Positions 1,562 through 41,081 of a stretch of 64,000 bases of DNA are shown in pieces. The notes beneath the pieces were generated by a model. The model did no database searches. It was not told where the DNA came from and saw only the letters and a program-made list of their open reading frames with translations. The DNA is from Microcoleaceae cyanobacterium (GTDB lineage: Bacteria; Cyanobacteriota; Cyanobacteriia; Cyanobacteriales; Microcoleaceae). The position numbers and the translations under genes were made by a program. Numbering within the stretch: position 1 is the stretch's first letter; the number at the start of each line of letters is the position of its first letter. The stretch covers positions 1 through 64,000 of the forward strand of contig JBOFUV010000131.1 of assembly GCA_051652765.1 (NCBI GenBank), read 5' to 3'.

Positions 1562-3049
1562 CTAAGCTTTATTCATGGTTTTACTTATTAAAAGTACTTG
1601 ACTTGCAATCTGTTCTTTAACTTGTAGCTGATTGATTTTTCCTTGAGGATTTCGAGGTAGTTGATCAATACAAATCCAATACTTTGGCAATTTGTATTTG
1701 CTGAGTTTATTCTGAAGCCAATCTTTGAGGAATTCTTCTGAAACTGTAGAATTAATAGGAACATAAACAGCCGTCACAACTTGTCCCCAATCTGCATCTG
1801 GCCAGCCAATGACACAGACATCTTTGACTAGATTTGTAGAGCGAATAACGGACTCTATCTCAGCCGGAAAAACATTTTCCCCACCCGTAATGATTTTCTG
1901 ACTATTCCGTCCAACGATAGTTAAATAACCCTGTAAATCAAAATAACCCAAGTCATCTGTTGAGAATGTTTGTAAGGGTGAAGTTTGTAAAGGTGAATTA
2001 TGGTTGTTCCCTTGATCATAGTAACCCCACATCAGAGAACTCGCTTGAATTGTGATCAATCCTGATTGATGAATTGTGCATTCTTCACCTGTTTCTTGAT
2101 GAATTTTAACGGTCGCATGAGGCAAAACTTGACCCACTGAAAGATGTCCAGAGAGAAAATCTTTTGGTTTTAAAGTAACAATTTGGGATGCTGTTTCAGT
2201 CATGCCATAGGTCGGAGCCAGTTGAATATTCTGTTGTCTGGCTTGGCTCAGCAATTCCGGCCAAGCTGGAGCACCTCCTAAAAGCACCGTATGAAATTGA
2301 GTTAGCCATTGTCTCTGTTCAGCATGGGTTAACAGCCGTTGAAGTTGAGTCGGAACCAAAGAAATAAAAAAATCCGAGAAATTAACGTTAGGAACTTGGC
2401 CTCGTTCTACAGCTTTAAATGGAAAAATCGCCAGTTTTCCATTCGTGATCCAGGAACGAATAAATTGCATTAATCCACTGACATGATAGAGCGGAAGTGT
2501 ACAAAAAGAATGAATCTGCGATCGCCCAAAAAACTGTTGAAATCCGATTACTGAAGCGGTTAAAGTTTCCCAAGTATGAATTACAAATTGGATTTTTCCT
2601 GAGGAACCTCCCGTTGGAATTAGAATCGAACCATGAGGAATGAAGGAGAATGTTGAAGCTTGTAGTGAAGTTTGTAGTGAGTCTGAGCTTGAATCATCGC
2701 CTAAAATCAAGTCTGGTTGAACCTGTTGGAAAACCTGTTTCCACTCAAGTTCAGCCCAGTTAGGATTGCAGAGAAAGACCGGACATTGTTCAACAACTGC
2801 AGCTAGAAAGCAACCTAAAAACTGTTCGGGCTCTGTTGCGATCAACAGAATTTTAGGCTGGAAATCATCTATGGTTGTACAGTCTTTAAATTTGCGGGAT
2901 TTAGGTTCAAAATCTCTAACCTTGAAATCTTGAATGATCTGAGTTTGTTGCTGAAATGTACAAATAACTTTTTGTAAACAACACCCAATTAACGACTCAG
3001 TTGATCCCTTTTCTAACCGCTTAAGAATTTCACCCGATACCGACTTCAT
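1562..3049 (-). CDS. menE: 2-succinylbenzoate-CoA ligase
   Basis: AMP-binding motifs PTGGSSGK, TYGMTET, TDDLGY, IITGGENVFPAEIE, LPRNPQGK. Start MKSVSG at 3049 preferred; the ORF extends to 3121. Confidence 0.85.
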   Translation of the reverse strand: MKSVSGEILKRLEKGSTESLIGCCLQKVICTFQQQTQIIQDFKVRDFEPKSRKFKDCTTIDDFQPKILLIATEPEQFLGCFLAAVVEQCPVFLCNPNWAELEWKQVFQQVQPDLILGDDSSSDSLQTSLQASTFSFIPHGSILIPTGGSSGKIQFVIHTWETLTASVIGFQQFFGRSQIHSFCTLPLYHVSGLMQFIRSWITNGKLAIFPFKAVERGQVPNVNFSDFFISLVPTQLQRLLTHAEQRQWLTQFHTVLLGGAPAWPELLSQARQQNIQLAPTYGMTETASQIVTLKPKDFLSGHLSVGQVLPHATVKIHQETGEECTIHQSGLITIQASSLMWGYYDQGNNHNSPLQTSPLQTFSTDDLGYFDLQGYLTIVGRNSQKIITGGENVFPAEIESVIRSTNLVKDVCVIGWPDADWGQVVTAVYVPINSTVSEEFLKDWLQNKLSKYKLPKYWICIDQLPRNPQGKINQLQVKEQIASQVLLISKTMNKA

Positions 3050-3180
3050 AGAGATCTCCCTCGCGATCGCAGGTAGAATGCCCGCACTACAACTTAAATC
3101 AAGCTGCCACATGTAAAACACTAGGTCAACCTAGACTACCCATAGGGCAACCCAAGTGATGGATGCAAAGCTTGCCGAAC

Positions 3181-3210
3181 AGGCTTCTGGCCTGCGCGGG
3201 CAAGATACCT
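3181..3210 (+). repeat. Short dispersed repeat, copy 1 (aggcttctggcctgcgcgggcaagat)
   Basis: Matches 10818-10843 at 23 of 26 nt. Confidence 0.6.
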
Positions 3211-3262
3211 ACACCACGTTTACAATTCAAACAGGTTTTCTACAGCAACAACGACAAGAAAT

Positions 3263-4387
3263 TTATTGTGCTGCAATAACTTCTTCAGCAAGCCCAAAAG
3301 AAAGAGTCATTCCAGCTCCGCTTAAGCCATTAACAATTGTAACTCCAGGTTCCGGAGAAGTTACAAACTCAGTTTTGCCGGGAAGTTTAGCATAAATTCC
3401 ATGCCAGGTTTCGGCTATTTCAAAGGAGGGAAGCTGAACAAATTCTTTGAGATAATTCAGGATATATTGATTTAGCTCAGCTCGATCAAATGGGTCAGGA
3501 TTTAAGCCATATTCATGGGAATCTCCAATGGTTAATTCACCCTCTGAATTTTGTGATACCATCACATGAATTCCCCACTCTGGAAACCAAGGAGTTTCAG
3601 CTTGAATTCTGGTTTTCAATGCCTCTAAAGAAGAACATCCTGCGAAGGAAGCATAATGAGTTAAAGTCAATCCTCCACAGAGTGCTGCTCCAATCCGAAA
3701 TTGATCAGGCTGAGGTACTGTCCGCATCATTTGCAGCTTGACTTTTGTAATGTTACTATCTGCATAAATTTCAGGATAAAGTGTTTCAAAGTCAGCCCCG
3801 CTGCACACAAAAATTTGATTAGCTGTCCAAATTTCTCGACCTACCATTAACTTAGGAAAAGCAATCTCAGTAACAACTGTACCAAACTGAAATTCAACCT
3901 GATATTCACGGAATAAAAAGCCAGGAATTTTACAAATTGCCTCCCTCGGATCAACAATCACTTCCGTAGAACTCCAGAGCGATTCTAATAATCCTTCCGG
4001 TCGAACCGCAGGGCTTTTTTGCAAGGTCTCCTCAGGAGTGATCAGAGCAACTGTTGCAGCAGCTTGCCCAACAGTTGAAACAAACTCTTCCAAAACCATC
4101 CTTTCATCTTCATGATAGGCAACATGGAGAGAACCGCAAGGATCGGTGTGAAATCCAGCTTTTACACCCGTTTCCAACCAGATTTCGCGGGATCTCAGGG
4201 CGCGATCGCGCAGATATCCAAAGGGCTGACCCACAGGCCATACCATCCCAAAGTTACGAATTGAAGCTCCAACTGATTGAGGATGACGTTCAAAAACAGT
4301 GACGTTTAACCCTTGTTTGGCTGCCGCTAAAGCATGGGCAAGTCCGACAATTCCTGCTCCAATAATTGCAACGTCTGTGTGTTTCAT
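3263..4387 (-). CDS. FAD-dependent oxidoreductase, TIGR03364/HpnW-like (DAO fold; candidate aminophosphonate amine oxidoreductase)
   Basis: IIGAGIVG Rossmann motif, GASIRNFGMVWP, KLQMMRT, GLTLTHY, IGDSHEY, SGAGMTLSFGLAEE. Overlaps the HAD gene by 4 bp. Confidence 0.85.
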   Translation of the reverse strand: MKHTDVAIIGAGIVGLAHALAAAKQGLNVTVFERHPQSVGASIRNFGMVWPVGQPFGYLRDRALRSREIWLETGVKAGFHTDPCGSLHVAYHEDERMVLEEFVSTVGQAAATVALITPEETLQKSPAVRPEGLLESLWSSTEVIVDPREAICKIPGFLFREYQVEFQFGTVVTEIAFPKLMVGREIWTANQIFVCSGADFETLYPEIYADSNITKVKLQMMRTVPQPDQFRIGAALCGGLTLTHYASFAGCSSLEALKTRIQAETPWFPEWGIHVMVSQNSEGELTIGDSHEYGLNPDPFDRAELNQYILNYLKEFVQLPSFEIAETWHGIYAKLPGKTEFVTSPEPGVTIVNGLSGAGMTLSFGLAEEVIAAQ

Positions 4388-5109
4388 AGATTCTCTATTT
4401 GATTTCTTAATTCAAGGATTGAACTGAGTAATCCATCATTCGGATATTGTTCTAGTTGGTCTCGTGCATGAGTCCCGTTTGTTACGCCCAAAGACAAACA
4501 ACAGCCTGCGTTAGTTCCTGCTTCAATATCAGAAGGAGTATCTCCAACCGTTACAACTTTTCGAGGATCTTTGATTCCCAATTTATACATCGCTTTTTGA
4601 ATCATATAGGGAGCAGGACGACCCTCATTATGATAAATTTCAGAAGGAGTTACTGATACTTGAATCATGGAAGTATCTGTACCGATGTAGTTCCGATCTA
4701 ATCCTTGATTCCAGCCCAAACGCGCTAGGATAATATCAGTAACTTCTCGGTAAAACCCTGTATTTAAACCAATTTTAATACCTTGAGATTTCAGCCATTG
4801 AAAAAGCTCTAAGCAGTTTTCAGTTGGCTCTACAGGCTGAGTCTGATAATGAGTTTCCAGAACTTCCTTAAAGTCACGATAAGAAGTTTCAACTCGGTCA
4901 AGATAATCGAGATGATCCTGACCGAGTTGTTCAGCCCAAAGGGTCTGAAATACCAACTTTTTTGTCCAACCCATCATTCTAATAATTTTCTCTGGAGCGG
5001 CTTGCAATCCAGTCCGTTCTGCAGCTTGAAAAAAACAGTCTTGAACCTCATTTTTGTCCTTGACCGTTGTTCCAGCCATATCAAACACAATCAGTTGGAT
5101 CTTGGACAT
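4384..5109 (-). CDS. Phosphonatase-like HAD hydrolase (TIGR03351/PhnX-like)
   Basis: FDMAGT motif I, cap MGWTK (position of the phosphonatase Schiff-base Lys), LNTGF, GRPAPYM, VGDTPSD...GxNAG. Start MSKIQ at 5109. Confidence 0.85.
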   Translation of the reverse strand: MSKIQLIVFDMAGTTVKDKNEVQDCFFQAAERTGLQAAPEKIIRMMGWTKKLVFQTLWAEQLGQDHLDYLDRVETSYRDFKEVLETHYQTQPVEPTENCLELFQWLKSQGIKIGLNTGFYREVTDIILARLGWNQGLDRNYIGTDTSMIQVSVTPSEIYHNEGRPAPYMIQKAMYKLGIKDPRKVVTVGDTPSDIEAGTNAGCCLSLGVTNGTHARDQLEQYPNDGLLSSILELRNQIENL

Positions 5110-5276
5110 CGTAAATAATACCAATAATTGTAGAAACACTCATTTCGGCAATATGCTATCACATCTTTTGCAGAGAACACAATCAAGTTTCAAGGGGAAA
5201 TCTTAAGAAAAATTAAACGTAGATCTTGACATTTTGAGTTCACTAACAGGTCATCTCTGCATTACGCATTTACAAG

Positions 5277-5341
5277 TTTACAACTTAACTTTATAACTTA
5301 ATTTTACAACTTAACTTTATAACTTAATTCTATAATCTAAT
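5277..5341. repeat. 13-bp tandem repeat (TTTAYAACTTAAY x4 plus one degenerate unit)
   Basis: TTTACAACTTAAC/TTTATAACTTAAT repeated twice, then TCTATAATCTAAT. Confidence 0.85.
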
Positions 5342-5536
5342 TTAATAGTTTAAGTCTTTATAACAATCAGTAATGGTTGATGAGATGTCTGTGCAAGCAA
5401 GATATCACTCCATGACATGTGGCAAGTCAGATCGCTACAGTTCAAATCTAACTACTACAATCAGTTTAACTGAATCGCCAATTTTTTTAAGATAGATGGA
5501 GAGCCTCAAGCAAGACCTAAAGATTGCCTCATAGAA

Positions 5537-5591
5537 TGTAAGTTTTTCTTAAGATAAGAATAACCTTTTCTTAAACTCAGGGTGATAGAGT
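5537..5591 (+). promoter_or_regulatory. Putative Pho box (SphR/PhoB) plus extended -10 for the phosphonate ABC operon
   Basis: 11-bp-spaced units TGTAAGTT (5537), CTTAAGAT (5548), AATAACCT (5559), CTTAAACT (5570), then TGnTAGAGT at 5583-5591. Resembles the cyanobacterial CTTAACCT consensus. Confidence 0.6.
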
Positions 5592-5766
5592 ACACGACAA
5601 TTAATGTATTAATGTCCTTAGCTCTAGCTTAATTTTAGACAAGAATCTTAAATTTTTAAGCTTTCAGACTGAAGTCATGTTATGGGTTTAAGTACATAGT
5701 TTAAGGGGATGAATTAGTTCAGCTTTCATCGCCTGTTTCTCTAGCTTCTGTTATCTAAATTACCCT

Positions 5767-6915
5767 ATGTCTAAGTATCAAACTCGAAGAAATTTCATCC
5801 TCGCCTCTTTAGCCAGCTTTACATCTGTGATTGTTGCTTCCTGTTCTGGTGGTGGATCTAATTCAGGCGGAGGCTCAACTCAGTCTACTCCAACCGGAAG
5901 CGCTCCTACAAACACAGAAGCAACTACTGCTGATACAACTACTGCTAATGCCAGCGGAGCAGCAGATACAATCACTGTTTATACTGCTTTAGAAGATGAT
6001 CAAATCAAGGCGTATCTATCTTTATTTAAGGAAGCTCATCCTGATATTAAAGTTAATATCGTGCGGGATTCAACAGGAATTATCACAGCAAAGTTGCTAG
6101 CTGAAAAAGACAATCCTCAAGCAGATGTGGTGTGGGGATTAGCTGCTTCTAGCCTTTTAGTTGCAGATCAGCAAGGACTTTTAGAACCTTTTGCCCCAGC
6201 AGGTTTAGATAAAGTTCAACCTAAATTCAGAGATGATCGAGAGCCGCCTCACTGGGTTGGAATTGATGCCTGGATGTCTGCATTTTGTGTCAATACTGTT
6301 GAAATGGAGAATAGAGGATTACCAATTCCTCAATCCTGGGAAGATTTAACTAAGCCGGAATATAAAGGCTTAATTGTGATGTCTAATCCAGCTTCTTCTG
6401 GCACAGGATTTCTATCGGTTTCAGCACTTTTACAAATGAAGGGTGAAGAAGAAGGCTGGAAATATCTGGATGCTTTGAATGAGAATATTGCTCAGTATAT
6501 GCATTCTGGATCAAAGCCTTGTAAAGCGGCTGGAACTGGAGAATACCCCATTGGAATTTCCTTTGATTATCGTGCTGTAAAACAGAAAAATGAGGGAGAG
6601 CCGATTGCAGCAGTTTTCCCAACTGAGGGTTCAGGCTGGGATATTGAAGCGAATGCTTTAGTGAGGAAAGCAGAGATTAAACCTGCGGCCAAAACCTTCT
6701 TGGATTGGGCAATTACTCCTGAAGTTTCTGAGAAGTATGCTGAAAACTTTGGGATTACAGCAGTTTCAACAAATGTTCCTGTTCCTGAAGGTTTCCCGGC
6801 TGATCCAACGGCTCAACTTGCTAAGAATGATTTCAATTGGGCGGCTGAGAATCGGGATGCAATTTTAGAGGAGTGGACAAAACGTTACGACTCCAAATCC
6901 GAACCTAAGAGTTAA
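5767..6915 (+). CDS. aepX: Putative 2-aminoethylphosphonate ABC transporter substrate-binding lipoprotein (AepX/PhnS2 type)
   Basis: Tat-like TRRNF, lipobox [63 protein letters not shown]. Confidence 0.85.
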
Positions 6916-6927
6916 TTTCCATGACTG

Positions 6928-6951
6928 AAGGCGCTTCTGAGAAGCGCCTTT
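6928..6951 (+). terminator. Intercistronic stem-loop after the binding-protein gene
   Basis: Perfect inverted repeat AAGGCGCTTCT-G-AGAAGCGCCTT; weak terminator or mRNA stabiliser. Confidence 0.6.
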
Positions 6952-7050
6952 GATACTTCAAATTAATAGCTCTAGCAGTATTCTGATCGATAATCTATAC
7001 CGACCAATTAAAGGGTTCAAGACTTATAGGAGAAAAATAGGAGAAACATA

Positions 7051-8262
7051 GTGACTTACTCTTCTGAACAACCGGTTAAGACCGCTCGACAACAAGCTCA
7101 TCATGGTTATTCAACTTCAGATCGCTTCACTCAATCCCCGAATGAGTCTATTGGATCAAGCTTAGGAGAGCCTTATCTACAAATTGAAGGAGTTAACAAA
7201 TCCTTTGGTAATTTTGTTGCTTTACGGGAGATTTATCTCAATGTTTATCCCAGTGAATTTGTCTGTTTACTCGGGCCGAGTGGCTGTGGAAAGACAACAC
7301 TATTGCGAATTATTGCTGGGCTAGAACAACAAACAAGTGGTCGCGTGATTCAAGCTGGAAAAGATGTTTCACAATTACCCCCTTCTAAACGAGATTTTGG
7401 AATTGTATTTCAGTCCTATGCTTTGTTTCCAAACTTAACGGTTGAACAAAACATTGGTTATGGCTTGCAAAATGAAGGGCGACCCAAACAAGAAATTCAG
7501 GCAAAAGTTAGTGAGCTAATTAGCCTGGTTGGACTTGAGGGAAATTCCCATAAATTTCCCTCTCAAATGTCTGGTGGACAGCAACAACGAGTTGCTTTAG
7601 CACGGGCATTGGCTCAATCTCCTGGACTTTTACTATTAGATGAACCGCTGTCAGCTTTAGATGCCAAAGTCAGGGAAAAACTCCGCACTGAAATCACTCA
7701 ATTACAGAAGCGTTTGGGAATCACAACCGTTATGGTTACCCATGATCAGGCAGAAGCTTTATCCATGGCGGATCGAGTCGTAGTGATGGACAAAGGATAT
7801 ATTGCCCAGGTCGGAACACCCCACAATGTTTATCAAGAACCCAATACTCCCTTTGTTGCTAATTTTATTGGGGTGATGAATTTCCTTAAGGGAACTGTAA
7901 TTTCCTCAGATCAGGTTCGTTGTGGCAATGTTGTACTTAATGTAAGCCCTCGAGTTTTACAAGAAATTAATAGCACCGTGAACATTGCTGTGCGTCCGGA
8001 AGATATTAAACTTTTGGGGGAAGTTGATACTGTTAATTCACAACAATTGAATCTACCCAATGTCTTGATAGTCAACGTTGACAGTACTGAGTTTTTGGGA
8101 TCAAGCTACTTAATTGTTGTGAGTCCAGAAGGAGATTCTAAAGATAAAATCTCAGTGAATATTCCCATTGAAATAGCAAGACAACTCAGTCTAAATTCCC
8201 TCGATTGTTGTTTGGCAGTCCAACTTCCTCCTGAGTTGATCAAGGTTTTTCCAAACAATTAG
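7051..8262 (+). CDS. Putative 2-aminoethylphosphonate ABC transporter ATP-binding protein (PhnT2 type)
   Basis: [38 protein letters not shown]-terminal TOBE-like region; AGGAGA RBS upstream of the GTG start. Confidence 0.85.
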   Translation: MTYSSEQPVKTARQQAHHGYSTSDRFTQSPNESIGSSLGEPYLQIEGVNKSFGNFVALREIYLNVYPSEFVCLLGPSGCGKTTLLRIIAGLEQQTSGRVIQAGKDVSQLPPSKRDFGIVFQSYALFPNLTVEQNIGYGLQNEGRPKQEIQAKVSELISLVGLEGNSHKFPSQMSGGQQQRVALARALAQSPGLLLLDEPLSALDAKVREKLRTEITQLQKRLGITTVMVTHDQAEALSMADRVVVMDKGYIAQVGTPHNVYQEPNTPFVANFIGVMNFLKGTVISSDQVRCGNVVLNVSPRVLQEINSTVNIAVRPEDIKLLGEVDTVNSQQLNLPNVLIVNVDSTEFLGSSYLIVVSPEGDSKDKISVNIPIEIARQLSLNSLDCCLAVQLPPELIKVFPNN

Positions 8263-8611
8263 TTAACAGCCAGTTAATTTAATTCTTCTAGATAGGTTAT
8301 GAGTTTTCTATAGAATGGGTTAGCGCAATACATCTGAGTTACATTAAGCATTCTCTAAAGAGTTTTTGTAAATCAAGTGAGTTGTTCTTGCCGAAAGTAT
8401 CTGGAGATTGGTTCATAGCATTTGTGACAATTTCTAGGATAATTTCTCCTATCTCTCTCTAAAGAATAAAAGTTAAATGACTTCTTGAACTTACCTGAAC
8501 TTTATGGGTTAGGAGTCTTGCCTGATTGAATTTTATGAATCAGCCATTTCATTAGATTCAATCCTCCGCGAACTGCTCTAACCCCCACACTTCTGTTATA
8601 TCAGGAATTAC

Positions 8612-8675
8612 TTAGAAAAAAGTGTTTAGAAAAAGTGTTTAGAAATAAACTGTTTAGAAAGAAATATTTAAGAAA
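8612..8675. repeat. Imperfect 13-15 bp tandem repeat (TTAGAAAAAGTGT-like) just upstream of the permease
   Basis: ttagaaaaaagtgt ttagaaaaagtgt ttagaaataaactgt ttagaaagaaata. Confidence 0.7.
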
Positions 8676-10406
8676 ATGACAACTTCAAACTCATTCTTAC
8701 AACGATTTTTGCCACAAGGGATTCAGCACAAAGCCATGGCTGAAGACTGGATTATGAGAATTTTGTTGGGGTTAGGAACCCTGTGGTTACTGATTGGAGT
8801 TGTGTTTCCTTTAGTGCCAATGATCAGTCGTAGTTTTCAGGATCGAGATGGGAACTGGATCGGACTTTCCAACTACGTTAAATACCTCACAACTCCTGCT
8901 TTAGGTCAATCTTTTGGAAATAGTTTGTATGTTGCAATTGTTAGTACCTTAATTTGTGTTGTGCTAGCGTTTGTCTACGCTTATGCCCTAACTCGAACAG
9001 CAATACAAGGCAAAGGAATTTTCCGCACCTTAGGAATGTTACCGCTTTATGTTCCTCCCATGGCCCATGCAATTGGACTAGTTTATTTATTTGGAAATCA
9101 GGGAATCGTAACCAAAGGGCTTTTTGGTCTGTTTCCAGGTTGGGATATTAATCTCTACGGCTCAACAGGGATTATTTTAGGGGAAGCTCTATACTGTTTT
9201 CCACAAGCCTTAGTGATTCTAATTACTGCCTTGAGCTTAACAGATGCTCGACTGTATGAATCAGCAGAAGTCCTTCGTACCTCACCTTTGCGAACGTTTT
9301 TAACTATAACGATTCCTGGAGTTAAGTATGGCTTGATCAGTGCAATTTTTGTCTGCTTTATTCTGGCATTTACAGACTTTGGTGTCCCCAAAGTTGTCGG
9401 GGGAAGTTTTAATGTTCTGGCAACGGATATTTATAAGCAGGTTATTGGTCAGCAGAACTTTGCAATGGGCGCAACAATTAGTGTTTTCCTGCTTGTTCCT
9501 GCTGTGATTGCTTATATCATCAATCGCATCATTCAGCGCCGCCAGACCACCTTTGTTAGTGCTAAGTCAGTGCCATTTCAAGCCAAGCCTAACTCAACTT
9601 TGGACTGGGTAATGTTTACTTTTTGCTGTTTGACCGCGTTAGCAGTTCTAATTGTATTCGGCACAATTATTTTTGCTTCTGTTGTCAAAGTTTGGCCCTA
9701 TAATTTTAGTTTCAGCCTCAAACATTATGACTTCGGTAATGTTGGAGGTGGAGGCTATCAAGCCTATCGAAACAGTATCTTGATGTCTCTACTGACAGCA
9801 GTTTTTGGGACGATAATTGTTTTCATTAGTGCTTACTTGATTGAGAAAGGTAAGGAATTACCCTGGTTAAGATTTGTCAATGCTTTTCTTTCAAACTTGC
9901 CCTTGGCATTGCCGGGATTAGTATTAGGTCTATCCTATGTTTTCTTCTTTAATCACCCTAGAAATCCTCTGAACTTCATCTATGGGACGATGATAATTTT
10001 AGTGCTCTGTAATATTGTCCATTTCTACACAGTTTGTTTTCTGACGGCCAGTACGGCGCTCAAGCAAGTTGATCCCGAATTTGAATCTGTTTCTGCATCC
10101 ATGAGAGTGCCATTCTACAAAACATTTTGGCGAGTGACTGTTCCCATGTCGATACCAGCTATTTTAGAAATTGGGATTTATTATTTTGTTAATGCCATGA
10201 TTACAATCTCTGCCATTGTCTTTCTTTATCCAGCCAATTTGCCTCTCGCTGCAGTGGCAATTGTCAATATGGATGATGCTGGAGATGTTGCGGCGGCGGC
10301 GGCGATGTCAACCCTGGTTGCGTTTACCAGTATTGGCGTGAAAATCCTTTATCATTTTCTGACTCAAGGCTTACGCAACCGAACTCAAGCCTGGTTAAAT
10401 CGATAG
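8676..10406 (+). CDS. Putative 2-aminoethylphosphonate ABC transporter permease (PhnU2 type, two BPD_transp_1 domains)
   Basis: About 12 TM segments; DARLYESA, TDFGVPKVVGGSFNVLATDIYKQVIGQQNF, LKQVDPEFE, MDDAG. Confidence 0.85.
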   Translation: MTTSNSFLQRFLPQGIQHKAMAEDWIMRILLGLGTLWLLIGVVFPLVPMISRSFQDRDGNWIGLSNYVKYLTTPALGQSFGNSLYVAIVSTLICVVLAFVYAYALTRTAIQGKGIFRTLGMLPLYVPPMAHAIGLVYLFGNQGIVTKGLFGLFPGWDINLYGSTGIILGEALYCFPQALVILITALSLTDARLYESAEVLRTSPLRTFLTITIPGVKYGLISAIFVCFILAFTDFGVPKVVGGSFNVLATDIYKQVIGQQNFAMGATISVFLLVPAVIAYIINRIIQRRQTTFVSAKSVPFQAKPNSTLDWVMFTFCCLTALAVLIVFGTIIFASVVKVWPYNFSFSLKHYDFGNVGGGGYQAYRNSILMSLLTAVFGTIIVFISAYLIEKGKELPWLRFVNAFLSNLPLALPGLVLGLSYVFFFNHPRNPLNFIYGTMIILVLCNIVHFYTVCFLTASTALKQVDPEFESVSASMRVPFYKTFWRVTVPMSIPAILEIGIYYFVNAMITISAIVFLYPANLPLAAVAIVNMDDAGDVAAAAAMSTLVAFTSIGVKILYHFLTQGLRNRTQAWLNR

Positions 10407-36804: not shown

Positions 36805-37638
36805 TTAACCAAATCGACCGCTAACGTACTGTTGTGTGGCCTCTTCCTTCGGGTTTTGGAAGATGGTTTGAGTCTCATCAAACTCAACAAGATACCCAAA
36901 TCGCTTGCTACCGCTCTCAGCCTTCGCGTTGTAGAACGCCGTCATGTCAGCGACCCGAGTGGCTTGCTGCATGTTGTGGGTCACGATAATGATGGTGTAT
37001 TTTTCCTTCAACTCGTGAATCAGCTCTTCAACCGCTAGGGTAGAAATTGGGTCAAGGGAAGCACAAGGTTCATCCATTAACACGACATCTGGTTCAACAG
37101 AAATCGTGCGAGCAATACATAGCCGTTGTTGCTGTCCTCCAGACAAAGCAAAACCGCTTTGACCCAGTTTGTCCTTGACTTCGTCCCAAAGAACTGCCTG
37201 ACGCAAGGAACGCTCAACGATCTCGTCCATCTCTTCTTTTGTTTTGGCCAGACCGTTGACGCGAACCCCATAGGCAATGTTGTCATAAATAGTTTTTGGG
37301 AAAGGATTCGGCTTCTGGAAAACCATCCCAATCCGCCGCCGCACTTCAACCGGATCAACATCCGGATCATAGAGGTTCTTCCCTTTGTAATAGACCTTTC
37401 CGTCCAGATGAAAAATCGGAATCAAATCGTTCAAGCGATTAAAGCACCGTAAAACAGTACTCTTACCACAACCTGAAGGGCCAATAAAGGCAGTGACCTT
37501 ATTCTTGGGAATACTCAAGGAAATCGAACGTACGGCTTTGAAGTCACCGTAGAACACATCAAGATTTTCAGTCTCCAAAGCTGGGTCAACCGCTTTGGCT
37601 GCGGGTTGCCTCGCCGGTTGATATCCGTAGTCCACCAT
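36805..37638 (-). CDS. pstB: Phosphate ABC transporter ATP-binding protein
   Basis: [37 protein letters not shown]. Confidence 0.96.
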
Positions 37639-37899
37639 AATAACTTAACTCCCAATAAATTTTATCTACCCCATACTTGGGTTACATTTGCCTTGTTTCC
37701 AGCCCACCCCTGTTATACCAGACCCGCCCAGATTGTATACGTATCTAGCAAACCCATTCCTTGCAACAGCCCCGACAAGAATAATTTCTCCAGGAGCGCT
37801 GCTTTGATCAAACAGCAGTCAATACGAGAATAATTGAACTAGAGACAGATACAAGCTGAGCCGAATTGGATGCCTGTCAGCAGACAATTAAAATTGCTT

Positions 37900-38793
37900 T
37901 TAAAACTGCTTTTGACGAGTTGCCCAGCGAGCCAGAATGCTTGTCAACAATACCAAGAGCAACAAAACCAGAGACGCTGCCCAGGCAAACTCTTGCAACA
38001 CTCTATCAAATCCTCTAGCAAACTCATACACTAAAAAAGACAGAGAAGGTAGAGTTTGGGACAACGGACTGGGATTAGGCCAGTTATTGGTATAGATGAC
38101 CGTAAATAGCAAAGGAGCAGTTTCCCCTGCCGCACGGGCAATCCCTAAAGTCACCCCAGTTAAAATTGCAGGCAATGCTGCAGGAAGAACGACTTGAAGG
38201 GCCGTTTGATAATTGGAAGATCCTAAACCAACAGAAGCCGAACGAATATCCTGAGGGACAATCTTCAGCGCTTCATCCGTTGTTCGGACAATCGTTGGCA
38301 ACATCAGAACTGCAAGAGCGATCCCCCCAGCAAGTACAGAAAATTGCCCCATATTAAGAACCACCAAGCTGTAAACAAAAACCCCGGCGATGATCGAAGG
38401 CACACCACTCAGAACGTTCGTTGCAAAACTAATCGTCCCCTTAACTCTATCAGAAGCAAACTCTGAGACAAAGATAGCCGCTAAAACTCCAAAGGGGACA
38501 GCAAGTAAAGCGGCCAGAGAGACCACCTGAATCGTCCCCAGAATAGCACTGGCGATTCCTCCAGAGGTTTGACCCGCAGTCGGAGGCAACTTAGTAAAAA
38601 GATCGAGATTTAACCGACCTGCTCCTTTGAACAATACATAGAGTAACACCGCAAACAAAGGAACCAGAGCAATCGCAATACAAGCCCCTGAAATCCCAGT
38701 CATCACAATGTCAAGAATATCCCGAGGACGGCTGCGATTCCGAATTAAACCCTGGACACTTGAATCACTATAGGTTTGAGAAGCGTTTGACAT
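37900..38793 (-). CDS. pstA: Phosphate ABC transporter permease PstA
   Basis: LSGVPSII, RTTDEAL, ARAAGETAPLLFT. Confidence 0.95.
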   Translation of the reverse strand: MSNASQTYSDSSVQGLIRNRSRPRDILDIVMTGISGACIAIALVPLFAVLLYVLFKGAGRLNLDLFTKLPPTAGQTSGGIASAILGTIQVVSLAALLAVPFGVLAAIFVSEFASDRVKGTISFATNVLSGVPSIIAGVFVYSLVVLNMGQFSVLAGGIALAVLMLPTIVRTTDEALKIVPQDIRSASVGLGSSNYQTALQVVLPAALPAILTGVTLGIARAAGETAPLLFTVIYTNNWPNPSPLSQTLPSLSFLVYEFARGFDRVLQEFAWAASLVLLLLVLLTSILARWATRQKQF

Positions 38794-38839
38794 AACTTTA
38801 GATCAGGATATGTAAGGTCAGAGATTGAACAACAAGAAA

Positions 38840-39799
38840 CTACTGATATTTCGCCTGAACCCGGCTTACAATCTGCTGCGCTAGGATATTCACAATAAGC
38901 GTTAGGATAAACAAAACAAACGCAGCATACATCAGGGACGAGATCTGAAGTCCAGACGCTTCTGGGAACTGGTTAGCCAGAAGTGAGGCAATGGTGTTGC
39001 CGGGAGCAAATAGAGAGATATTAAATCGGTTTGAGTTACCAATGATCATGGTAGCGGCCATGGTTTCTCCCATTGCTCGACCCAGTGCCAACATGATTCC
39101 CCCAACAATCCCAGAGAACGCTGCCGGAACCAACACGCGAAAAATCGTCACCCAGCGGGTCGAACCCAAGCCCAAAGAAGCCTGTCTCAAGTCTGGAGGA
39201 AGGCTAGCCAAAGAATCTCGGGCGATCGCCGTAATAATCGGCAAAATCATAATTGCCAAAACCACTCCCGCTGGAAAGGTTCCTGGCCCCGCTGGAGGAG
39301 TGCTAAAAAACGGAATCCAGCCAAAATTATTAAAAATAAACAGCTGAACGGGTCTCAGAAAAGGAACCAACACAAAAATTCCCCACAGACCATAAACGAC
39401 ACTTGGAATCGCCGCCAGCAACTGCACCATGAACGTTAGAACAGTCCGAATCTGGGGCAGAATGAAGTCTTCACTCAAAAAAATTGCAGTCCCTACCCCT
39501 AATGGAACAGCAAACAACAACGCGATTAGGGACGTAACAATCGTTCCATAGATCATTGGGAAAGCCCCGTAATTAACATTGACGGGATCCCAAGCACTGT
39601 TGAAGACAAACCCTAAGCCGAACTGTTTCATCGCCGGGAAGGCTTTCTCAATAATCGGCAGTGCGATCAAGACCAAAAGTACTACAACTCCCCAAGCGAA
39701 GATTTTAGTCAACCAAGAAAAACCGAAATCCAGGTTTTTCTCCATCGGTGTGCGGGACTGGGGAATCCCTCCTTGAAAATCGTTAGCAGGTGTAGCCAT
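38840..39799 (-). CDS. pstC: Phosphate ABC transporter permease PstC
   Basis: AAIPSVVYGLWG, LGRAMGETMA, TIASLLANQFPEA. Confidence 0.95.
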   Translation of the reverse strand: MATPANDFQGGIPQSRTPMEKNLDFGFSWLTKIFAWGVVVLLVLIALPIIEKAFPAMKQFGLGFVFNSAWDPVNVNYGAFPMIYGTIVTSLIALLFAVPLGVGTAIFLSEDFILPQIRTVLTFMVQLLAAIPSVVYGLWGIFVLVPFLRPVQLFIFNNFGWIPFFSTPPAGPGTFPAGVVLAIMILPIITAIARDSLASLPPDLRQASLGLGSTRWVTIFRVLVPAAFSGIVGGIMLALGRAMGETMAATMIIGNSNRFNISLFAPGNTIASLLANQFPEASGLQISSLMYAAFVLFILTLIVNILAQQIVSRVQAKYQ

Positions 39800-39846
39800 A
39801 GGGAATCAAGAACTAATTCTTTGCTCAACAGTAATAAACTCAATCT

Positions 39847-39897
39847 AAAAAGCAGTCAGACAAACTTACCCATATGGAAAAGTTCAATCTGACTGCT
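39847..39897 (-). terminator. Stem-loop downstream of pstS
   Basis: AGCAGTCAGA (39851-39860) pairs with TCTGACTGCT (39888-39897); T-run follows on the minus strand. Confidence 0.55.
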
Positions 39898-39908
39898 GCA
39901 CCCTCAAA

Positions 39909-41081
39909 CTATTTAACCTTGATTTGATAGTCAGGACTGATTGCATCTGCAGCAGCCGCGACTTTTTCAACAACATTCTCAGGCAGAGGAATATAGCCCA
40001 GCTCGGCACTCACCTTCTGACCTTGGGTCAAACCATACTCAATCGTTGCTTCCAGAGCCTTGGCAATTGCCGGATCACTGTACTTGGTATTGGCGAGCAT
40101 CCAAGAGTAGGTAACGATAGGATAAGATGCCTCACCTTCTGGGTCATCAATAAATGCCCGTAGGTTCTCTGGCAACTCAACCGCCGCCAAAGCCGCAGAA
40201 GTGTTTTCAGGGGAAGGCATAACAAACTTTCCTGCCTTATTCTGAAGAGAGGCCATCGCCAGTCCCGCATTCTTGGCAAATCCTTCTTCGATGTAGCCGA
40301 TTGAACCAGGAGTCTGACCGATCTGAGCCGCAACTCCATCATTCTTAGGAGCACCAATTCCAACAGGCCACTGAACCGTCTTGCCATCACCTACAGAACT
40401 CTTCCAATCTTCGCTAATCGCACTCAAGTGCTTAGTAAAGACACCTGTAGTTCCGCTTCCGTCAGAGCGGAAGATTGGAGTAATTGGTAAATCAGGCAGG
40501 GTCACTCCCGCGTTGTCGGCAGCAATTTTTGGATCATTCCAGTTGGTAATCTTGCCCAGAAAAATCTCGGAGTAAACTTCTCTAGAAAGCTTCAATTCTG
40601 GAACATCGGGAACATTATAGGACAGAACAATGGCCCCTGCAGTCATGGGCAACAAAATCACCCCGTTGGTGACCCTTGCGATTTCCTCATCTGTCATCGC
40701 AACATCGCTTGCACCAAAATTGACCAGCGACTGAGTGAATCGCTCAATTCCAGCGCCACTTCCGACGGACTGATAGTCAACTTGAAGGTTGGGGACAGCA
40801 CCACTGAAATCCTGGAACCAGCGCTGATACAAGGGAGCTGGGAAGGATGCACCCGCACCAATCAAGTTGGTTCTACTGTTTAGCACAAGCTGAGTTGCAA
40901 CACCACCCGTTGGTTCTGTACCACTGGGCGCAGTAGTCGTTGTGCTTCCAGCCGCAGGGGTTTCAGTGGTTGTTGTGGTTGTTGTTGTAGTTGTTCCACC
41001 GCAAGCAACTAAACCTAGAACTAGGGCAACAATAGAAGCTTTAGTAACACAAGAATTTAGACGAAAAACCATAGCTATCAA
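39909..41081 (-). CDS. pstS: Phosphate ABC transporter substrate-binding lipoprotein
   Basis: Lipobox LVAC, GAGASFPAPLYQRW, YQSVGSGAG, FGASD, RSDGSGTT, YPIVTYSW. Alternative start at 41072. Confidence 0.95.
   Translation of the reverse strand: MIAMVFRLNSCVTKASIVALVLGLVACGGTTTTTTTTTTETPAAGSTTTTAPSGTEPTGGVATQLVLNSRTNLIGAGASFPAPLYQRWFQDFSGAVPNLQVDYQSVGSGAGIERFTQSLVNFGASDVAMTDEEIARVTNGVILLPMTAGAIVLSYNVPDVPELKLSREVYSEIFLGKITNWNDPKIAADNAGVTLPDLPITPIFRSDGSGTTGVFTKHLSAISEDWKSSVGDGKTVQWPVGIGAPKNDGVAAQIGQTPGSIGYIEEGFAKNAGLAMASLQNKAGKFVMPSPENTSAALAAVELPENLRAFIDDPEGEASYPIVTYSWMLANTKYSDPAIAKALEATIEYGLTQGQKVSAELGYIPLPENVVEKVAAAADAISPDYQIKVK

Follow-up and report, generated by a model that had tools for sequence, protein, structure and literature searches.

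A cyanobacterial locus with a TIGR03364 oxidoreductase, a PhnX-like hydrolase without His56 and a PhnS2/T2/U2 transporter: a predicted route for aminophosphonate use

The locus described here lies in a 64,000-nucleotide stretch (the window: positions 1 to 64,000 of contig JBOFUV010000131.1) from the genome of a Microcoleaceae cyanobacterium (GCA_051652765.1). It comprises five open reading frames, whose coordinates and strands confirm the initial annotation: a flavin adenine dinucleotide (FAD)-dependent amine oxidoreductase and a haloacid dehalogenase (HAD) hydrolase are divergent from the three genes of a PhnS2/T2/U2 ATP-binding cassette (ABC) transporter (Table 1). That annotation proposed a two-enzyme route from 2-aminoethylphosphonate (AEP), or its N-methyl form, to phosphonoacetaldehyde and thence to phosphate and acetaldehyde. 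The route fits the family scores, the context of 80 related loci, a set of fusion proteins and the failure to find PhnW or carbon-phosphorus (C-P) lyase in the genome.

Table 1. Features of the locus, in window coordinates.
Feature	Position	Strand	Basis or remark
FAD-dependent amine oxidoreductase, TIGR03364 / PbfD type, 374 aa	3263..4387	-	TIGR03364 and PF01266 matches
PhnX-like HAD hydrolase, 241 aa (ATG start)	4384..5109	-	best family TIGR03351, below cut-off
Degenerate Pho-box-like array, 8-base units, 11-base period (predicted)	5537..5577	+	5′ of transporter genes
PhnS2 / AepX-like substrate-binding protein, 382 aa	5767..6915	+	TIGR03261
PhnT2 ABC ATPase, 403 aa, GTG start	7051..8262	+	TIGR03265
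PhnU2 fused double permease, 576 aa	8676..10406	+	TIGR03262

The oxidoreductase scores 455.5 bits against TIGR03364 (cut-off 285.1) over model positions 1-365 of 365. The binding protein, ATPase and permease likewise pass the cut-offs of TIGR03261 (488.5 bits against 392.75), TIGR03265 (490.4 against 457.7) and TIGR03262 (763 against 593.25). On these profile matches the oxidoreductase is a member of its family and the transporter subunits are members of the PhnS2/T2/U2 families, as the initial annotation expected. A quick tree (47 of 91 non-duplicate rows) places the oxidoreductase among proteins of cyanobacteria, Bacteroidota and Chloroflexota (53-78% identity), separate from those of Acinetobacter, proteobacteria and actinobacteria; its identity is ∼30% to Acinetobacter proteins from phnWX-type or PhnX clusters and 34-37% to proteobacterial proteins. 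The second-nearest Atlas cluster of the oxidase is mostly Planctomycetota, a lead only. PbfD enzymes are reported to oxidise N-methyl-AEP (M1AEP) to phosphonoacetaldehyde (Zangelmi 2023, PMC10590968); the same source adds that oxidation of AEP and M1AEP also yields hydrogen peroxide and ammonia or methylamine, identifies PbfD1 with TIGR03364, and records that many cyanobacteria carry PbfD homologs that do not belong to phnWX/phnWYA clusters.

The hydrolase had been described as retaining phosphonatase features, and the three motifs concerned (DMAGT, MGWTK and GRPAPYM) are all present. In an alignment with Bacillus cereus PhnX, the register of which was fixed by the K53R entry, D10, A12, M46, G47, K50, T117, R164, D190 and D194 correspond to Asp12, Ala14, Met49, Gly50, Lys53, Thr126, Arg160, Asp186 and Asp190. 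However, the best-scoring family, TIGR03351, is matched over its full length at only 176.4 bits (cut-off 218.9; relatives of the hydrolase score 165-216) and the PhnX family, TIGR01422, at 104.1 bits (cut-off 220); Val53 occupies the position of His56, the counterpart of Cys22 is missing and Tyr128 is replaced by Phe. Not every phosphonatase feature is therefore kept. Judged by its sequence the protein is best called a member of a PhnX-like subfamily, not PhnX by cut-off or by His56. Among 67 aligned rows (after removal of 13 rows of other type and 4 duplicates) Val at the His56 position together with Lys at position 50 is found in 66, the last being a broken frame that is unaligned there; Glu21 is fixed in 65 (two rows are partial) and His214 in all 67. 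His is present at the His56 position in 7/7 canonical PhnX rows, and is counted among the catalytic or water-activating residues of the B. cereus enzyme (PMC11203657, PMC7916636).

The top six sequence matches of the hydrolase among solved structures are B. cereus PhnX (24-28% identity), and PhnX also supplies the top three Foldseek matches of the predicted structure, for which the mean predicted local distance difference test score (pLDDT) is 92.5. By Z score the fold ties PhnX (24.1) with the phosphatase AlnB (24.4); fold was accordingly rejected as proof of phosphonatase activity, since PhnX and HAD phosphatases are not told apart by it. B. cereus PhnX (TIGR01422; PDB 1rql, 1fez) shares with the hydrolase the HAD fold (template-modelling score 0.78) and the DxAGT, Lys53 and Arg160 set; it differs in the three residues given above, in its separate tree branch and in a long insertion in the C-terminal region that the hydrolase lacks. 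In a careful tree (36 rows) canonical PhnX is split off with 100/100 support, and the cyanobacterial proteins form a clade with one Hymenobacter protein (98/98) beside the TIGR03351-type proteins, subject to a long-branch warning. The latter family, as we take the TIGRFAM text to define it, has DxAGT, a cap Lys and an Arg replacing the usual Lys, and is linked to TIGR03364 rather than to phnW; the hydrolase shares all of these traits (Arg164 being the Arg). The synteny of TIGR03351 with TIGR03364 is also quoted in PMC10590968. Members of that family resemble the window hydrolase in lacking His56 (Ala in a Tsukamurella member) and in standing beside TIGR03364 genes, whereas the window hydrolase falls below their cut-off and into its own clade.

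Evidence for the substrate comes from fusion proteins. Two long proteins (P0254 and P0315) out of 150 listed representatives combine a TIGR03364 oxidase (46% and 40% identity) with canonical PhnX above cut-off, and in an Anaerolineae locus a 57% identical oxidase lies directly after canonical PhnX. Of the representatives, 20 had their names checked, and PbfD2 of Mariniblastus fucicola was not one of them. Because the oxidase group is fused or adjacent to canonical PhnX, these arrangements tie its predicted product to phosphonoacetaldehyde. Two further long proteins (P0241 and P0242) join a TIGR03366 alcohol dehydrogenase to a His-less TIGR03351-type PhnX-like domain with Ala at the His56 position in both. 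The dehydrogenase is probably of the same kind as PbfG, which belongs to pf00107, is nearest to threonine dehydrogenase and converts hydroxyethylphosphonate to phosphonoacetaldehyde (PMC13576164), and its fusion to His-less hydrolases argues that these, too, are likely to be given phosphonoacetaldehyde. Among 815 long candidates none was listed in which a hydrolase of the type found in the window is joined to the oxidase, which is weak evidence.

The N-terminus of the binding protein, as read from the sequence, has an RR motif and a lipobox-like Cys, and the protein is 46% identical over 319 aa to its counterpart in an Acinetobacter pbfD-phnW-phnX cluster. Its family, TIGR03261, is presumably that of AepX. 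AepX binds AEP (Murphy et al. 2021, PMC8316502), and the AepXVW/PhnS2T2U2 systems of that paper, in the main text of which the word 'cyanobacteria' is absent, resemble the present transporter in their three-gene layout and fused permease, the likeness to AepX being one of family models.

Related loci were drawn from a scan of species genomes, the counts resting on the best 80 of 269 relatives, many of which are cut by contig ends. They belong to named cyanobacteria (69), Bacteroidota (5) and Chloroflexota (1), with five unassigned. A hydrolase with ≥45% identity lies near the oxidase in 62/80 and each transporter gene in 32/80; an HD oxygenase is present in 24/80, phnF in 11/80 and phnG in 3/80, such that at least one of PhnS2, PhnU2, HD oxygenase, phnF and phnG accompanies 44/80. 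A PhnX, PhnX-like or HAD gene is also found near the TIGR03364 gene in 7/8 annotated plasmid regions, the exception being from Burkholderia. Distribution across cyanobacteria is patchy: the oxidase is above cut-off in 5/31 near genomes and in 6/401 genomes of the phylum (source genome included; four candidates scored per genome). Carrier genomes were picked by hand and include kin that are not independent. Among them 31/32 with the oxidase have a hydrolase homolog (25 at ≥57% identity, 6 at 37-39%), PhnW was found in 0/37 (completeness is given for 8), and 38 divide into 18 with PhnS2 only, 14 with PhnJ only, two with both and four with neither.

The source genome is 99.97% complete. A profile search of all of it returned no match to PhnJ, PhnA or a phosphonate HD oxygenase. 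PhnW was not found either: the best match (184.8 against a cut-off of 360.8) reads as a general class V aminotransferase, and a hidden PhnW was rejected. A hidden PhnCDE was likewise rejected, two PhnD-like genes having no adjacent phnC or phnE in the stretches read. Across the families covered, no phosphonate-cleaving route other than this locus came to light; PhnY*-type oxygenases had no search of their own. The initial annotation had noted that no phnW, phnA/phnY/phnZ, C-P lyase, aldehyde dehydrogenase or LysR/GntR regulator lies in the locus; this holds for the locus, whose flanking genes (menE-like and FHA/Ser-Thr kinase) include no phn gene or regulator, but the genome encodes an acetaldehyde/alcohol dehydrogenase, AdhE, elsewhere (1427.9 bits against a cut-off of 951).

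Taken together, these analyses suggest that the five genes import AEP and/or N-methyl-AEP and free its phosphate through the oxidase and the His-less PhnX-like hydrolase, a reading to which we assign a probability of about 75%. The PhnS2T2U2 transporter would import the aminophosphonate, the FAD oxidoreductase would convert it with O2 to phosphonoacetaldehyde, and the hydrolase would cleave this to phosphate and acetaldehyde. In the cleavage step Lys50 may form a Schiff base and Asp10 may attack, a different proton relay standing in for His56; the invariant Glu21 or His214 is a candidate for this relay; AdhE may dispose of the acetaldehyde, and phosphate starvation may induce the transporter. 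Gene order, family membership, residues, co-occurrence and the failure to find PhnW and C-P lyase in the genome were observed directly. The substrates of the five proteins we infer, and the published basis for them (PbfD oxidation, AepX binding of AEP) concerns relatives.

Several points weigh against this reading. Those concerning the hydrolase are its scores below both cut-offs, the loss of a catalytic His and of Cys22 and Tyr128, and a fold that matches a phosphatase as well as it does PhnX. The oxidase is distant from the PbfD1-type proteins of Acinetobacter, and the solved structures nearest to the binding protein are AfuA-like and pyridoxal phosphate (PLP)-binding proteins, with no solved AepX among the matches. 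Of the 80 loci, 36 showed no additional phosphonate marker, though many are truncated by contig ends. The fusion proteins belong to small clusters of metagenomic origin (1-3 members; 3 and 1 for the oxidase-PhnX proteins) and could be read-through artefacts. The Burkholderia TIGR03364 gene (L106:5971-7104, 37% identity) lies by histidine-utilisation genes and an amino-acid ABC transporter, with no hydrolase annotated within 6 kb; because of this neighbourhood the TIGR03364 family may include non-phosphonate enzymes. Finally, the enzyme pair lacks any Pho-box signal (see below).

It is possible, if unlikely, that the locus handles another aminophosphonate, for example a 1-hydroxy or only an N-alkyl form, and that the hydrolase cuts a different 2-oxo-phosphonate. 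The hydrolase clade does have its own invariant cap (MGW.K..VF, E21, H214), HAEP is proposed in the TIGR03364 family text as quoted by PMC10590968, and both the HD oxygenase (24/80) and a ureidoglycolate-lyase-like gene (12/80) often join the locus. Against this, the PbfD proteins that have been assayed turn M1AEP into phosphonoacetaldehyde and oxidise AEP (PMC10590968), the oxidase group is fused or adjacent to canonical PhnX, and the source genome has no HD oxygenase match. The ureidoglycolate-lyase-like gene encodes 213 aa (PF04115, E 1e-8; e.g., L050:11132-11773) and adjoins the hydrolase-oxidase pair in L028, L036, L037, L039-L042, L049, L050, L055, L058 and L063, mostly from Pseudanabaena and often with HD oxygenase and Nudix genes; no mention of it was found in the phosphonate literature examined.

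A second alternative, in which the hydrolase acts as a plain phosphomonoesterase and what the locus imports is an amino-phosphate ester or other amine, no phosphonate being involved, would suit the loss of His56, the tie with AlnB, the AfuA-like and PLP-binding relatives of the binding protein and the single TIGR03364 gene in a histidine-utilisation cluster. It is nevertheless improbable: out of 67 rows, 65-67 retain DxA (not DxD), Lys50 of the cap and Arg164, the leading structural and sequence matches (top three and top six) are all PhnX, and phnF, phnG and the phosphonate HD oxygenase are neighbours in relatives.

The initial annotation saw the route as one of phosphorus scavenging. The cyanobacterial Pho (SphR) box consists of at least three 8-base units like CTTAACCT with 3-base linkers (PMC1906773); the array 5′ of the binding protein has five mismatches over three units. 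A matrix built from the eight best boxes of relatives was used to rank 1901 upstream regions of the genome, and placed the transporter box (5548-5577) at rank 28, pstS at rank 15 and two alkaline-phosphatase-like genes at ranks 2 and 4. A similar box lies 5′ of the binding-protein gene in a same-genus genome (G002). Three-unit arrays (≤3 mismatches) at period 11 occur in 7/31 transporter promoters of relatives, with 0, 1 and 0 at periods 10, 12 and 13, counts from which unassigned and non-cyanobacterial loci were left out. No such signal was found 5′ of the enzyme pair, the hydrolase ranking 905 of 1901 and 0/60 relatives having an array at ≤3 mismatches. Phosphate control predicted from such boxes is plausible on the uptake side but lacks support on the enzyme side, and what weak support there is comes from the transporter promoter only. 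That the same chemistry serves mainly to gain nitrogen (ammonia or methylamine), with the enzymes outside phosphate control, is the least probable alternative, favoured by the box-less enzyme pair and by the report that AepX systems can be phosphate-insensitive (PMC8316502), but opposed by the enrichment of period-11 boxes 5′ of the relatives' transporter gene and by the high ranks that the matrix gives to pstS and to two alkaline-phosphatase-like genes.

The window also contains, at 36805-41072, pstS (TIGR00975 above cut-off) and, after it, three pst-like genes; a Pho box of two units lies 85 bases upstream. A 13-base repeat at 5277-5335 was rejected as a Pho box because of its period; across the genome, arrays at periods 10, 11, 12 and 13 number 12, 15, 14 and 19. 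This repeat and one of 15-base period at 8612-8676 are spacer tandem repeats, and similar arrays are common in the genome. A perfect 11-base inverted repeat just 3′ of the binding-protein stop (6928-6950) may stabilise or end the transcript. A scan for sigma-70 sites and terminators was discarded, sites being rarer than in shuffled sequences. Third-position GC is low across 1562-10406, four of the five genes falling in the lowest 1-3% of long open reading frames and the neighbouring menE-like gene at 4%; since the latter is low too, lateral transfer is not decided by this alone.

Translational coupling of the enzyme genes, also claimed initially, has a basis in the window, where the hydrolase stop and oxidoreductase start overlap by four bases (ATGA, 4384-4387), but not in relatives: an exact -4 overlap is found in only 2/63 related loci with both genes (starts called mechanically), and conserved coupling is thus unsupported. 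An alternative GTG start of the hydrolase at 5139 would add ten residues that have no counterpart in the family.

The arrangement of the module varies. In L060, L061 and L070 phnG immediately precedes the hydrolase-oxidase pair, which seems to lie within a C-P lyase cluster. Same-genus genomes (L124, L125; G001, G002) retain the full set of five genes, but not in one place, hydrolase and transporter or hydrolase and oxidase being together and the remainder elsewhere. Other ABC transporter genes, of peptide or polyamine/iron type, replace PhnS2T2U2 beside the pair or the hydrolase in L043, L046, L073, L076, L088 and L127, and are possible unrecognised aminophosphonate importers. Thermostichus-type loci (L059, L069, L077 and L126) have the oxidase and transporter with strong Pho-box-like arrays, and a distant PhnX-like gene (37-39%) elsewhere; they are a candidate basis for the uncharacterised phosphonate use of hot-spring Synechococcus cited in reviews (PMC3266647, PMC10574752).

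The initial annotation considered such a route little characterised in cyanobacteria. The implied novelty is too high: a PhnW-less pathway of PbfD and PhnX was demonstrated in vitro in 2023, and cyanobacterial PbfD homologs were noted (PMC10590968). According to that paper PbfD2 of M. fucicola accepts AEP as well, replaces PhnW and was named with PhnX as a pathway. The likeness to the present locus, which is by published description, lies in the pairing of a TIGR03364-type FAD enzyme with a PhnX-type hydrolase in a two-enzyme aerobic route, with no phnW in cluster or genome. The differences are a cyanobacterial host and a His-less partner hydrolase, the coupled assays of the paper having used Vibrio splendidus PhnX. 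In the hpnW-phnSXUT operons of Achromobacter (PMC11203657) a TIGR03364 gene again replaces phnW and stands with a phosphonatase, a transporter and often an HD oxygenase; these operons differ in having canonical PhnX with His and a LysR regulator, and no Pho box was found there. We found no description of the cyanobacterial locus in the open-access literature, although the supplement of PMC10590968 may list such clusters; passages of PMC12366243, PMC10291797 and PMC9629505 contained nothing on it, and a paper on phosphate starvation in Trichodesmium (PMC6411698) yielded no passage on these genes for the terms searched. Nor was any assay of a TIGR03351-type or His-less hydrolase found in the open-access literature. 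The locus probably operates as the published pathway of PbfD2 and PhnX does, supplied by an AepX-like importer, and is largely accounted for in this way. The pathway logic is already known; the points of interest are the His-less hydrolase and the cyanobacterial reach.

We lean slightly towards the broader view that aminophosphonates are mined by scattered cyanobacteria, most of them filamentous and many lacking C-P lyase, by means of an oxygen-using oxidase and a distinct, His56-free phosphonatase subfamily with another proton relay. If this is true, surveys based on phnW, phnX and phnJ would score such cyanobacteria as unable to use phosphonates, the module escaping standard surveys owing to a hydrolase that scores under the cut-offs of both families. 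The module could also explain the reported phosphonate use in hot-spring cyanobacteria through uncharacterised routes. The hydrolase offers a cheap test of whether a PhnX-like subfamily cuts phosphonoacetaldehyde without His56. More generally, a pathway published for heterotrophs would be extended to oxygenic phototrophs, and the genes would provide a marker set for aminophosphonate use.

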